A stretch of 64,000 bases of DNA from Escherichia coli (GTDB lineage: Bacteria; Pseudomonadota; Gammaproteobacteria; Enterobacterales; Enterobacteriaceae), in assembly GCF_050920415.1 (NCBI RefSeq), contig NZ_CP169309.1. One strand, given 5' to 3'. Numbering within the stretch: the first letter of the stretch is position 1; each line of letters begins with the position of its first letter. Under the pieces are notes generated by a model. It was not told where the DNA came from and did no database searches. It saw nothing but the letters and a program-made list of their open reading frames with translations. Shown here piece by piece: positions 54,473 through 57,988 of the stretch. The position numbers and the translations under genes were made by a program.

Positions 54473-57400
54473 TTAAAGCTGACGTTGATCCAGACTGCTA
54501 TATATTGCCTTTATTTCATTTTTTACGCTTTCGCCACGGTACACCAAAGACGTATCGTATCGTTGATACTTATCTTCCCGTGCAGCACTGAACCAGTTAA
54601 AAGATCCGACACACAGCAGTTCTTCATCCTCAATCACAATTTTGCTGTGGACACGATTAACCAATTTCGTAGCGATACCCATCTTATTGAGCTTTTCAAC
54701 AGCATCATTCAGCAGATGTTTTTTCTCCTGACGCTTATCATCATCGACATGCGCTATATTGCAGTTTTTATCCGTCACCACAGTAATATCAATGCCCCGG
54801 GAACGGGCCAAAGCCATTGATGCCAGAAATCCCGTTTGCTCCATTTTTTGCCAGGATAACCAAGGGGAAATAATCGTTATTTTCTTTTGAGCTCCGGCAA
54901 GAGTCATGTTCAAAAATTCATCATGCTGCTCCACGCCATGCAGCGTTGAAATTTGTGTATGTGCGGAAATTAAATCCTGTCGTTTATGAAACTCAAATTG
55001 CAACGCATTATTATCTGAAGAAAAGAGATATTTTGCCAATAACCCTCGCGGCGAAAATGCGGGCTGCATCTCGATAAGGTCCATATCGCCAAATACCAGA
55101 AAACTATCTTTAGCGCGTGAGACAGCAACATTGAGGATACTGCTGTTGCTATCAAGAAACCTGCCATCTTCATGTTTTGAGTAGACTGGAGAAAAGAGAA
55201 CAATCGCCCTTTCCGCCCCCTGCAAGGAGTGCACAGTCCCCACTGTCAGTGAACCCTCCTCGTCTTTGCCATTAATTTCCAGCTTACGCAATGACGTTTT
55301 GATAGCATTAACCTGCGCCGAAAATGGCGTCACAACACCAACAACTTTGTACAGTGGTTCCCCGTAATGGCGCTCTATATCATCCTTATGTGCCACCAGC
55401 CATGCTGCTATTGTTTCAGCTTCAAGAGGGTTATAACGGCTCCCCCCATTTGGCTTCATGCCTCTACCATCAATATGTAAATATCCCATTGCGGGGAAAA
55501 TCGTCCCTTTTTCCATCCCTCTTTTAGGCTGCAACTTACCGTGATAGCAAAGTGAGTTACAGTAGCCGATGATGTTATTGAAACAGCGACGATGCTCATA
55601 CAGATACATTCCGCGCTCGAACTTGGGATCATACTGGTAGTGAGAGTTAAACTGGGCTACCTGCATTACGCTGCCAGATGCTGCACTTTTTCCAGACCCA
55701 CACACGTGAGTATATGTATTTATTAACTCTTCCTGAGTGCCACCAGAAATAATATTCTCCTCAAGCATATTGCCCATATCAGTGACGGGTAGACAATTCC
55801 AGATTGGAGCTATTTGCTCCGTATCGCCAATCACCAGCGCTTTCTTCGCCAATGCAAAGGAAGCTGCAGCAACCTCCGGGAGTACCTGCCCGGCTTCATC
55901 GACAATCAGTAAATCAGCAAAGTTATATAAATAATTATTATCCGATGTTCTATCGCCACCAAAAGATTTTCTTCTGTTCATATGGTAAGGCAACATGTAG
56001 CAGGTCATCACCACACAAGGAGTAAGTTTCATTCTTCTTAGCCAACGAGCCTCGGCGATAGTTATCCCGGTAATTCCTTTTTCTTTTTGCAAATTATCTA
56101 TAGCTGCCATATCAATCAGCCAACGCCCCTCCCAATAATGGGTCGCTACCAAGAACGCTGGAAAACGAATCTGAGTATCGGCAAGTTCATCCGCTCCTGA
56201 AAGATTCAATTCATCGTCACCTCTGTAACCCAAAGCATAAGTCAACTCACGCCATTGTTTTGCAGCTTCTATTTCGCGTCGGGCTATATCCTTCGCATAG
56301 TTGATGTTCTGTTGGCACTCATCCTGCTCCTTTTGCGTTTTAGCAATCAAACTATCAATAAATTCATCAATATCTTCGGGATAATTTCCCTGGAACGATG
56401 TCATTCTTGTGCCAAACGTAGAGTCCAGGAAGAGGTTAATCTGGTAATGGCGTTTAGTACGAACAGCAGGAAGCCATGACAAAACCGCATACACTAGCGA
56501 CTCATCAGCACGGTATTGCTGCCACTGCTTTTTACCTCTTGTTAAAAGTGAAATTTCATTGCCAATATTGAGAAGACGTGTGTTTTCGTCCTGAAGATAC
56601 TGGTCGAGATTCTCACTGATGGCTCGCTGTTCATGGCGGATATCATTAAGCCTGCGCCATGTGGGTTCGATTTGCTGAAGTTGAATAAACTGTGAAGTTA
56701 AACGTTCATGCAAAAGCGTCACTACATGCTCTGGTGAATTGCACTCTCCAGCTCCAAACGCCACCTCCGCTTTTTCAAGGTAAAATGCCCGGGCTTTTTC
56801 CAGATATTCCTGGGATTCAACGTGGTTAAAAAAATCTTCAGTCTGGTATTTCTTCGCAGCCTCAACCTGACGGCTTTTAGACGGAAAATAAGCGCCATAG
56901 CTTATTACCTCCGGCAACCAACGACCAGCCATTACGCCAAAACCAGTAGAGAAATCTTTTCCAAAGGCTTCAATAATATTGGTGACGGCCTGATTGTTAG
57001 TTGATGTGGCAATAATTACAGGAGGTTCAGCTTGATTAAGTGCGGCTCTAGTCCATTCGGTGGCGATAATAGAAAGCACCAGCGTAGTTTTACCCGTTCC
57101 CGGAGGACCGTTAACAGCGAGCATATCCCCCTGCTGTTGAGTCAGATAATGGCTCAGGGCATCGCGCTGCGCCACTGCCAGCGGAAACTTATCGCCGGAA
57201 TGCCCCAGACGTTCGCAGAACATAGCATTCTTAGCGAGAAGTGGCTCTAGTGGAACCATTTCATTTGAGGCAAAACGCGTTAATAGAGGAACCTTAACCT
57301 GGCTCATCAGCAGATGGTCATACAAAGGCAGGATATGAACACTGGCCCCTACATGCTGGCTAGCTTTAACAATATAACCGTATCCAGCCCGTTCGTATGG

Positions 57401-57988
57401 CTCAGATGTAGCGACCCAATTTCCAGCGACGTTTCTTAAAAGGTTATCTGACTGTTGAAGATAATTTTGCCAATGCTGACGATACCTGGCATGGCGTTCC
57501 GCTTTCTCTTCGTCAGTTTCTTTGTAATGTTCTGGTTGACCTTCATTAATGGTGGCTGTGTTATGCGTAGTTTTGTATTTGTCATATTGCACCAACTCAC
57601 CAATAGAAAAATGACCGGAAGGGAGAGGTTCAAGCAGATCGCGGGGAATAGTGGCTGAAGCGGCAGGAAACAAAAAACCTTCCCTATTAAGAAGAGCGGA
57701 GGTAACCAGTGGCGTAATAATTGCGGGTGCACCTGCCGTTTGCTCTTTGCCATGCTTTACAATGCGGTTCCACACCTGGGGCCGTAACACGACTTCAACG
57801 TTTTTTACAGACTCCCCTTCACCGTCAAAAAATGCCCGAATAGTTTCGTCATCCAACTGCCCTGCGGTGATATTTATCCACCGAATGAATGATTCCGTAT
57901 CTTTACGTGAAAACGTTCCTTTGCCAGATTCGGCGTCAGCTAGGGAGTTGCGCCAGTATGAAGTGAATCCCAATGTATTGCTGTCCAT
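54473..57988 (-). CDS. SF1 (Upf1/DNA2-like) helicase fused to a C-terminal PLD-family (HKD) nuclease; candidate single-gene defence protein (Mokosh type II-like architecture)
   Basis: 1171-aa ORF. Helicase motifs: Walker [12 protein letters not shown], Walker B LIVDEAGQ, later motifs [17 protein letters not shown] and [18 protein letters not shown]-terminus carries one HKD motif, [20 protein letters not shown]. About 280 aa of unassigned N-terminal sequence. Lies directly 3' of leuX; K-12 has only a truncated helicase-like pseudogene (yjhR) at the corresponding position, as I recall. Confidence 0.8.

Follow-up and report, generated by a model that had tools for sequence, protein, structure and literature searches.

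The open reading frame (ORF) at 54473..57988 on the minus strand of the window, by which we mean the whole 64,000-nucleotide stretch of Escherichia coli DNA analyzed here, is very probably an intact yjhR gene encoding a single-polypeptide MkoC, the Mokosh type II protein, that acts by helicase-coupled cleavage of single-stranded DNA (ssDNA). The fusion architecture, the family membership, and the conservation of the catalytic residues are established for this allele, and we infer its activity by analogy with a tested relative. The original prediction, which was made from the nucleotide sequence and proposed a one-protein defense system of the Mokosh type II kind, is borne out by a full-length match of the protein to the MkoC profile of PADLOC (PDLC03924; E = 0; 1466 bits), which aligns aa 1-1169 with profile positions 1-1135 of 1136. 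The novelty that it implied is not: the finding is not new because RefSeq already names the protein, because Cury et al. (2022) described yjhR as a fused MkoA-MkoB Mokosh, and because leuX, the adjoining tRNA gene, is a published E. coli defense hotspot (#37).

Domain architecture and family membership

The yjhR (mkoC) coding sequence, taken from the ORF list and its translation, begins with ATG and runs for 3516 nt with no stops or frameshifts. The resulting 1171-aa, 132.4-kDa protein is 100% identical to RefSeq WP_000378101.1 ("helicase YjhR"). A full set of SF1 motifs and one HKD motif had been read in this ORF, and all of the quoted motifs could be located. A lower GC content than that of neighboring core genes had also been read there, and it holds in comparison with ahr (54.2%), idnO (50.2%), and idnT (50.8%) but fails against nanM (44.1%), idnK (43.6%), and nanC (41.7%), which are similar to yjhR (45.1%).

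The central part of the protein (aa 269-990; 55019..57184, minus strand) is an Upf1-like SF1B helicase core of two RecA-like domains, as evidenced by Pfam (AAA_11 at aa 273-461 and AAA_12 at aa 795-969), a family profile, and Foldseek. Walker A (GPPGTGKTT, aa 294-302, with K300) lies at 57083..57109 and Walker B (LIVDEAGQ, aa 694-701) at 55886..55909, both on the minus strand, and other helicase motifs occupy aa 919-932 and aa 954-961 (VAVSRAKD). The family profile matches Senataxin, Upf1, Sen1, IGHMBP2, and DNA2 with E values of 1e-12 to 1e-18, and the best Foldseek matches for the helicase, obtained with an AF2 model (pLDDT, 89.8; pTM, 0.84), are 8ftm, 8rd3, 2xzl, 4b3g, and 5ean. By both sequence profile and fold, the helicase is Upf1/Sen1/IGHMBP2/DNA2-like, and a helicase of housekeeping type is ruled out; searches of PHROGs returned generic helicase families only. 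Among 62 homologues, with identity down to 28%, P295 to G299 of Walker A are invariant and K300 is nearly so, G700 of Walker B is invariant with D697, E698, A699, and Q701 nearly invariant, and Q923, R927, and R958 are invariant or nearly so.

AF2 secondary structure and the identity profile delimit an all-helical insertion in RecA1 (aa ~393-653; 56030..56812, minus strand), with helices at aa 393-411, 419-457, 461-494, 507-529, 537-585, and 596-629 that are modeled at a pLDDT of ~90. This insertion is the most variable stretch of the protein: identity to the experimentally verified type of allele is 36-46% over aa 401-600, whereas most of the RecA core reaches 66-86%. Identity is equally low (36-46%) in the N-terminal linker (aa 151-200).

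The C terminus (aa 1000-1171; 54476..54991, minus strand) is a PLD-family nuclease domain with a single HKD motif. The predicted PLD/HKD fold is upheld by Pfam matches to PLDc_2 (aa 1029-1153; E = 4.7e-10) and PLDc and by matches of the family profile to the single-HKD nucleases Nuc (1byr) and NucT (6ehi). The motif, HxK(x)4D(x)6GSxN, spans aa 1114-1132 (54593..54649, minus strand) and comprises H1114, K1116, D1121, G1128-S1129, and N1131; in the same 62 homologues, D1121 and G1128 are invariant, and H1114, K1116, S1129, and N1131 are nearly invariant. HxKxxxxD occurs exactly once in the protein, which gives one HKD per chain. Since the characterized relative has a single HKD and is monomeric, we asked whether the N-terminal domain or the insertion in RecA1 could be a degenerate PLD half; hhalign profile-profile comparison of aa 1-140, 141-270, 1-270, and 345-690, each against the PLD region, led us to reject this at the sequence level (probability, 0.3-6%). 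With one HKD per chain and no hidden half found, the pairing partner would have to be a second molecule.

The unassigned N terminus, originally put at about 280 aa, corresponds to a family-specific domain of about 268 aa (aa 1-268; 57185..57988, minus strand) that is marked by conserved YWRNSLAD and IPRDLLEP motifs. Pfam detects no domain within aa 1-270 and no kinase domain anywhere in YjhR, and the N-terminal domain has no relative among solved structures; PDB sequence searches did not find a solved Mokosh structure.

These features place YjhR in Mokosh type II. A COG1112/Upf1-like helicase precedes a PLD nuclease in a single chain, the Walker A/B and HKD residues are intact (K300, D697/E698, H1114, K1116, and D1121), and homology to a verified member extends over the whole length at 63% identity. 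The PADLOC type I profiles match the shared helicase and PLD cores only, with MkoA covering aa 692-993 and MkoB aa 1011-1139, and MkoB and DrmC both give partial matches over the C-terminal PLD region. Mokosh type I is ruled out, given one fused gene, no Pfam kinase, and MkoA coverage that is confined to aa 692-993.

The tested relative and a proposed mechanism

Work by Millman et al. (2022) verified Mokosh II by using construct SG150, from E. coli 5-366-08_S1_C1 (IMG 2586378093), and revealed that Walker A and PLD mutants lose defense. WP_000344098.1 from E. coli 13KWH46, which differs from the SG150 protein at 6 positions in the first 399 residues, is 63% identical and 78% similar to YjhR (2 gaps; 1171 aa). 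A 2025 preprint on EcMokosh II describes a monomer of ~138 kDa that in vitro cuts ssDNA as its only substrate (M13 and SECphi17, in a panel without RNA), nicks plasmid, and leaves E. coli chromosomal and other double-stranded DNA (dsDNA) uncut. Cleavage required the nuclease site, and the NTPase site was dispensable; the text and a figure legend of the preprint conflict on the requirement for 1 μM protein. In vivo, protection was seen only against the ssDNA phage SECphi17.

By analogy with these enzymes, YjhR likely performs ATP-dependent, PLD-mediated cleavage of ssDNA. In the mechanism that we propose, the helicase core would bind single-stranded nucleic acid of an invader, either an ssDNA phage genome or long ssDNA intermediates of replication or transfer, and would translocate 5′ to 3′ at the expense of ATP. 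The PLD domain would then cut the strand via a metal-independent phospho-histidine intermediate, once two YjhR molecules had come together on the strand and so completed the active site. Two molecules are proposed because one HKD supplies only half of a canonical PLD site and the relative occurs in solution as a monomer. We infer activity, target range, and dimerization on substrate alike, and the target range of YjhR may differ from that of the relative because the regions likely to set specificity (aa 151-200 and 401-600) are only 36-46% identical.

It is possible, albeit unlikely, that the system is directed at RNA instead, with the helicase sensing phage transcripts or RNA/DNA hybrids and a Zucchini-like PLD domain cutting RNA, in parallel to MOV10L1 and PLD6 of the piRNA pathway. 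The nearest solved helicases are indeed RNA helicases (Senataxin, Upf1, IGHMBP2, and Aquarius); however, helicases of the Upf1 family accept ssRNA as well as ssDNA, and DNA2, another close relative, is a DNA enzyme. Cury et al. found that the yjhR fold resembles MOV10L1 (TM, 0.74) and PLD6 (TM, 0.63), and sensing of RNA or RNA/DNA hybrids was hypothesized by Millman et al. Given that proposal, and since the 2025 in vitro work used no RNA substrates, ssDNA is not necessarily the sole or the physiological target. Nevertheless, the existing biochemistry is ssDNA cleavage, and the protection reported in vivo is against an ssDNA phage only.

An abortive-infection role, in which a phage factor would turn the nuclease on host nucleic acid so that the cell dies or is arrested instead of the invader being selectively destroyed, we consider improbable. 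Mokosh type I behaves in this way, with a phage protein as the trigger, and the nicking of plasmid DNA by EcMokosh II would fit such a role. Yet the evidence comes from type I, whose additional kinase domain YjhR lacks, and EcMokosh II left both E. coli chromosomal DNA and other dsDNA uncut in vitro.

The leuX locus, the K-12 remnant, and selection on yjhR

As predicted, yjhR lies between leuX and nanS, and the positions of both were verified. The tRNA-Leu(CAA) gene leuX occupies 58292..58376 on the minus strand (ARAGORN and Rfam), a terminator scan places its terminator at 58261-58278, and yjhR, which has the same orientation, begins 303 nt beyond the 3′ end of leuX. On the other flank, nanS is an intact 326-aa ORF at 52910-53890 (plus strand), and the 580-nt gap between it and yjhR holds a pseudogene remnant at ~54000..54205 (plus strand), convergent with yjhR. 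On identical DNA, RefSeq annotates this remnant as an SBD-type "phosphorothioated DNA-binding" restriction endonuclease; its translation (APHKPLLLLK... / YEPLHSLLERFGPQRSQYRPDMPFWRL) is disrupted by a frameshift and stops. In strain 2017.09.02CC, an intact 290-aa restriction gene sits at the equivalent position beside yjhR. In the window, yjhR does stand without a partner gene, as originally stated; its pseudogene neighbor, however, is what is left of a type IV restriction enzyme, and enzymes of this class reportedly colocalize with Mokosh II in E. coli. In other genera, the neighbors of homologues vary and include type I restriction-modification, toxin-antitoxin, or CDI modules and a Fic gene, and no conserved partner gene accompanies the homologues in Salmonella, Serratia, Aeromonas, or a metagenomic homologue. 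Together, the flanks in the window and these varying neighborhoods point to a gene with no obligatory partner.

Judged from sequence, leuX is here a P4-type attachment site without an occupant, with yjhR on its chromosomal side. An occupied leuX site is seen in L010/L011, and a search for an island boundary found no repeat of the leuX 3′ end (attR) in the window or at the K-12 junction. A leuX 3′-end repeat lies directly upstream of yjhR in strain 2017.09.02CC, which places yjhR outside the P4 element. Between the tRNA gene and the start codon, block conservation defines a 5′ leader and promoter region (57989..58083, minus strand) that moves with yjhR, its blocks being kept in both E. coli alleles, Salmonella, Serratia, and Aeromonas. 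The region contains a promoter-like TGGACA-16-AATATT at 58061..58034, a GAAATC-AAT-GATTTC palindrome, and a TTGCGATCGCGCTCGCA block. As an RNA element, the palindrome was rejected, since it folds no better than shuffled sequence (z = 0.23), and Rfam finds only the tRNA over the leader and tRNA region.

The idea that the K-12 pseudogene yjhR (b4308) is a remnant of this gene proved correct: it is a 3′ remnant of ~98% nucleotide identity from codon ~763 on. In a blastn comparison of the K-12 locus with the window, homology starts at 55700 (gene nt 2289) and continues at 97-98% into nanS, and the DNA upstream of the junction is unrelated island sequence. The final 1228 nt of yjhR are 98.2% identical, and the downstream neighbors (the restriction-enzyme fragment, nanS, nanM, and nanC) are common to both strains. 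K-12 lacks codons 1 to ~763, which encode the N-terminal domain, RecA1, and the insertion, and has in their place the distal end of the KpLE2 island (the topAI-yjhQ-yjhP side). RefSeq additionally flags the K-12 remnant as frameshifted.

The possibility that yjhR is a universal core gene is excluded, as a full-length yjhR-type gene is present in just 12 of 5426 complete E. coli genomes (0.2%), with one of the copies interrupted by IS2. Sequence of yjhR occurs in 1729 genomes in total, nearly all with 3′ remnants, which fall into at least three breakpoint classes (nt 2289; 2414/2417; 2289-3020). Because the gene is rare and has been lost or truncated in most lineages, its benefit may be narrow. 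Against an E. coli allele of 94% nucleotide identity, dN/dS is 0.13, and it is below 0.16 in each domain, indicating purifying selection; this value and the conserved promoter and leader make the gene look functional. Hence, although the prevalence of remnants, the breakpoint classes, the IS2-split copy, and the decayed restriction gene next door would suit an inert relic on its way to a K-12-like pseudogene, that reading is very improbable in light of the intact reading frame, the full complement of catalytic residues, the low dN/dS, and the conserved leader. Finally, a housekeeping or repair helicase-nuclease (DNA2-like or RecD-like) adjoining leuX by chance is effectively refuted by the distribution of yjhR (0.2% of complete genomes have it whole, and all others have a truncated copy or none) and also sits poorly with the defense hotspot location and the experimentally demonstrated antiphage function of the family; similarity to DNA2, RecD, and RecD2 is weak, and NCBIfam scores fall far below the cutoffs (recD, 23.1 versus 310 bits; RecD2, 20.4 versus 500; IGHMBP2 family, 66.8 versus 348.9).

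Significance and relation to known systems

The long-puzzling K-12 pseudogene yjhR can now be read as the stump of a Mokosh type II defense gene, and the window reveals the ancestral layout of the locus, in which yjhR lies between an empty P4 attachment site and a type IV restriction gene. The new context provided by this analysis consists of the rarity of the gene and the purifying selection on it, the unoccupied P4 site, the decayed type IV neighbor, and the N-terminal domain. The Mokosh field gains a second natural allele from E. coli, which shares 63% identity with the tested one, and comparing the two could map the determinants of specificity and explain how a monomer with one HKD cuts ssDNA. 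The practical worth lies in annotation and strain biology, and no new kind of system is opened.

Several further proposals follow, which we offer tentatively and, taken jointly, regard as rather unlikely. Because the N-terminal linker and the helical insertion are only 36-46% identical to those of the tested allele, the yjhR type could be a specificity variant of Mokosh II that is directed at other single-stranded invaders, such as filamentous phages or conjugative ssDNA. YjhR may also act jointly with its usual neighbor, the type IV restriction enzyme, and the conserved leader might confer shared regulation. The chassis of N-terminal domain plus helicase also occurs without a PLD domain, beside the candidate effectors ART-PolyVal, CTD1, and a small membrane protein, which hints at undescribed Mokosh-like subtypes.

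The closest known system is the SG150-type MkoC, which has the same length (1171 aa), three-part architecture, and catalytic motifs as YjhR; both types share the leuX-adjoining hotspot and a homologous promoter and leader of ~80 nt. The coding DNA, however, is only 67-70% identical, which makes yjhR a distinct allele, and the SG150 type is common (878 of 5426 genomes) whereas the yjhR type is rare. The SG150-type island is also larger, with an integrase fragment, an HNH gene, an Mrr-like restriction enzyme, and a four-gene antiphage cluster, while yjhR stands alone here. Kinship of that Mrr-like enzyme with the pseudogene in the window was considered and rejected, as tblastn gave no match.

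Mokosh type I has in common with YjhR an Upf1-like helicase core and a PLD nuclease, but it divides them between two genes and includes a Ser/Thr kinase domain in MkoA, whereas YjhR is the product of one gene with an MkoC N-terminal domain that falls outside the MkoA profile coverage. The Upf1 family (Upf1, Senataxin/Sen1, IGHMBP2, DNA2, Aquarius, ZNFX1, and nidovirus nsp13) shares the RecA-domain fold and the motif set at an identity of 10-14% (10-18% when partial nsp13 alignments are included); MkoC differs in its own N-terminal domain, the ~260-aa helical insertion, and the fused PLD nuclease. Nuc of pKM101, Helicobacter pylori NucT, and Zucchini/PLD6 share the HxK(x)4D(x)6GSxN motif and the PLD fold. 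These single-HKD nucleases are stand-alone homodimers, in contrast to YjhR, whose PLD domain is tethered to a helicase and whose characterized relative is monomeric in solution.

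Domain architecture and family of YjhR

The original prediction placed a single ORF at 54473 to 57988 on the minus strand of the window, and the ORF list and translation bear this out: yjhR starts with ATG and runs for 1171 codons. The encoded protein (calculated mass, 132.4 kDa) has all of the helicase motifs read from the sequence, comprising a Walker motif (aa 294 to 302) and motifs at aa 694 to 701, 919 to 932, and 954 to 961, as well as one C-terminal HKD motif (aa 1114 to 1132), which is the sole HxKxxxxD in the protein. Pfam assigns AAA_11 (aa 273 to 461), AAA_12 (aa 795 to 969), and PLDc_2 (aa 1029 to 1153) and no domain to aa 1 to 270, the N terminus that had been called unassigned. 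Residues K300, D697/E698, Q923, R927, R958, H1114, K1116, D1121, and N1131 are invariant or near-invariant in homologues down to 28% identity.

Assignment to Mokosh type II is confirmed by PADLOC, whose profile for MkoC, the one protein that makes up this type, matches end to end (aa 1 to 1169 versus profile positions 1 to 1135 of 1136; 1466 bits; E = 0); matches to the type I profiles are confined to shared cores. NCBIfam has no equivalog for the protein, and its recD, RecD2, and IGHMBP2 scores are far under the cutoffs. The identical RefSeq protein, WP_000378101.1, is named "helicase YjhR." A family profile built from 62 homologues groups the helicase with Senataxin, Upf1, Sen1, IGHMBP2, and DNA2 (E values of 1e-12 to 1e-18) and the nuclease part with Nuc (1byr) and NucT (6ehi). 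The AlphaFold2 model is confident (pLDDT, 89.8; pTM, 0.84), and its best PDB fold matches are Upf1-family helicases, as in the profile search; sequence and fold searches of the PDB returned no deposited Mokosh structure. [quoted passage not shown] The prediction of a one-protein helicase-PLD defense system is therefore supported, for a system that was already established.

In the model, RecA1 contains an all-helical insertion of ~260 aa (aa ~393 to 653). Together with aa 151 to 200, it is the most divergent region, both between E. coli alleles and family-wide, with two-allele identity of 36 to 46% versus 66 to 86% across most of the RecA core. Target recognition or regulation would most naturally be sought in these segments. 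Profile-profile comparison gave no sign that either one is a hidden second PLD half, which could have accounted for the activity of a single-HKD monomer.

Proposed mechanism and signs of function

One type II Mokosh appears as verified in Table S2 of Millman et al.: SG150, a 1171-aa "Helicase-PLD MkoC" from E. coli 5-366-08_S1_C1. Of 5426 complete E. coli genomes, 878 contain its upstream DNA and 5' end. The 13KWH46 protein (WP_000344098.1) has 6 differences from SG150 in its first 399 residues, and it shares 63% identity and 78% similarity with the window protein over the full length, with two gaps. This match across the whole length makes the window gene a second, divergent E. coli allele of the validated system. 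In the tested Mokosh II, mutation of the ATP-binding site or the PLD site abolishes defense. Purified EcMokosh II, a ~138-kDa monomer, cuts only single-stranded DNA (ssDNA; M13 and SECphi17 genomes), nicks plasmid, and leaves double-stranded DNA uncut. In vitro, the nuclease site is required and the NTPase site is dispensable, and protection in vivo is limited to the ssDNA phage SECphi17.

The best-supported model for YjhR is drawn by homology to this characterized relative. Upf1-like helicases are 5'-to-3' motors, and such a motor would engage single-stranded nucleic acid of the invader, whose strand the tethered Nuc/Zucchini-like PLD domain would cut via a phospho-histidine intermediate. ATP hydrolysis is presumably for target access or discrimination, since it is required in vivo, yet naked ssDNA is cut without it in vitro. 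The canonical nucleases with a single HKD are dimeric, and this chain lacks a second half, and so two molecules may pair transiently on the substrate. A rival to this model is that the system would target RNA, in line with its helicase family and with what was originally hypothesized. Abortive infection, as a second rival, has been documented for type I only.

Silent decay of the window copy is a further alternative, against which the substitution pattern argues: between the two E. coli yjhR alleles, dS is 0.20 and dN is 0.027 (dN/dS, 0.13 overall; 0.16 in the N-terminal part, 0.14 in the helicase, and 0.09 in the PLD). Moreover, comparison of the window with the DNA upstream of the gene at four loci from other genomes (L003 9040 to 9121, L005, L006, and L013) revealed that ~95 nt 5' of the start (57989 to 58083, minus strand) are kept in blocks across E. 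coli, Salmonella, Serratia, and Aeromonas, where the proteins are 63 to 74% identical. The conserved blocks are TTGCGATCGnGCTCGCATCGTGGACAATGTTTAA and the palindrome GAAATC-AAT-GATTTC, and the leader includes a promoter-like TGGACA-16-AATATT. This conservation does not extend to a 48%-identical homologue. The leader matches nothing in Rfam, and its RNA hairpin is not notably stable; it may act as a common promoter or operator. Both the low dN/dS and the conserved leader argue for a functional yjhR gene in the window.

The leuX flank and its history

As predicted, yjhR lies between leuX and nanS: its start is 303 nt 3' of tRNA-Leu(CAA) leuX (58292 to 58376, minus strand, as yjhR; terminator, 58261 to 58278), and nanS is an intact ORF on the other side (52910 to 53890, plus strand). 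The low GC content ascribed to the gene (45.1%) holds against ahr, idnO, and idnT (50 to 54%) but not against nanC, nanM, and idnK (42 to 44%).

Strain 2017.09.02CC, which has a 94% yjhR allele, carries a complete P4-type satellite in leuX (NZ_AP025214.2; L011 17994 to 29678) with genes for integrase (int), sce7726, beta, gop, psu, delta, an icd-like product, and primase. Its attR (L010 2983 to 3040), which duplicates the 3' end of leuX (GAGTCCGGCCTTCG-CACCA) and has the leuX terminator after it, lies directly upstream of yjhR and a 293-nt spacer that is the same in the window, and thus yjhR is not satellite cargo. It is the first chromosomal gene past the attachment site, which is unoccupied in the window. 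Beyond yjhR, 2017.09.02CC has an intact convergent gene for a 290-aa SBD-type "phosphorothioated DNA-binding restriction endonuclease" and an HNH gene (L011 12198 to 13857). The window retains a remnant of the former between yjhR and nanS (about 54000 to 54205, plus strand), with a frameshift and stop codons, and the pair looks like a small decaying defense islet.

Of 5426 complete E. coli genomes, only 12 carry a full-length yjhR-type gene: six have it at 99.6 to 100% nucleotide identity, and the other six, among which one copy is interrupted by IS2, at about 94.4%. All other matches among the 1729 genomes with yjhR sequence are 3' remnants only, with breakpoints at nt 2289, at 2414/2417, or spanning 2289 to 3020. 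A housekeeping role is excluded by this distribution and the sub-threshold family scores. The suspicion that K-12 yjhR is a remnant was well founded: K-12 homology begins only at 55700 (codon ~763) and runs on through nanS, and upstream of the junction K-12 has DNA from the distal end of the KpLE2 island, in which no leuX repeat is present.

According to a 2025 EcoSal Plus review (PMC12707154), E. coli defense hotspot #37 is anchored at leuX and is filled in 97% of isolates. By identity to NZ_CP169399.1, window positions ~50 to 8100 are the "immigration control region," with hsdM, hsdS, and hsdR (type I restriction-modification [R-M]; about 50 to 6372), symE (about 6547 to 6888), and a GmrSD-family type IV restriction gene (about 6935 to 8098); the window therefore covers two adjacent defense hotspots. 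An IS2 copy of 1332 bp (25957 to 27288; ORFs of 136 and 301 aa) breaks iatD, which encodes an inverse autotransporter, leaving ORFs of 1205 and 555 aa. Otherwise, the window is near-identical to NZ_CP169399.1 over 1 to 49505, the extent of the compared stretch (100% over 1 to 25956; 99.995% over 27289 to 49505); that record has IS2 in nanS instead.

Homologues and comparison with known systems

Homologues in Salmonella, Serratia, and Aeromonas share no conserved partner gene; their neighbors are CDI/TA modules, a type I R-M system, or a Fic gene. Other MkoC homologues span aa 1 to ~996 (the N-terminal domain and helicase) without the PLD, at loci L007 (3851 to 7973), L008 (4592 to 8315), L015, L016 (612 to 6982), and L017 (920 to 4872) from other genomes. 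They lie a few nucleotides from genes of other kinds, which encode a 209-aa membrane-anchored protein, an 899-aa protein plus ART-PolyVal, a CTD1-domain protein with MComp1 and AAA_15 after it, or a hemerythrin-like GGDEF protein. Such loci may encode Mokosh-like systems that use alternative effectors.

The system itself is already known, and the genomic context of yjhR is new detail. The remaining value lies in a natural allele pair for mapping specificity, the reconstructed ancestral leuX-flank islet, the uncharacterized N-terminal domain of MkoC, and the PLD-less homologues beside other candidate effectors. Among 975 instances of Mokosh II in E. coli, Wu et al. found 882 to co-occur with type IV restriction, and they reported nonrandom colocalization. 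Like the window yjhR, the SG150-type allele is at leuX. There it sits in an island (NZ_CP019250.1; L003 7095 to 18194 and L012) with an integrase fragment, HNH, a Mrr-like restriction enzyme, a PLD/DUF1156/DUF3780/DUF499 antiphage cluster, ISL3, and fosA7.5. At the far end of this island, the old yjhR has been deleted, and the old SBD-type restriction endonuclease fragment and HNH remain.
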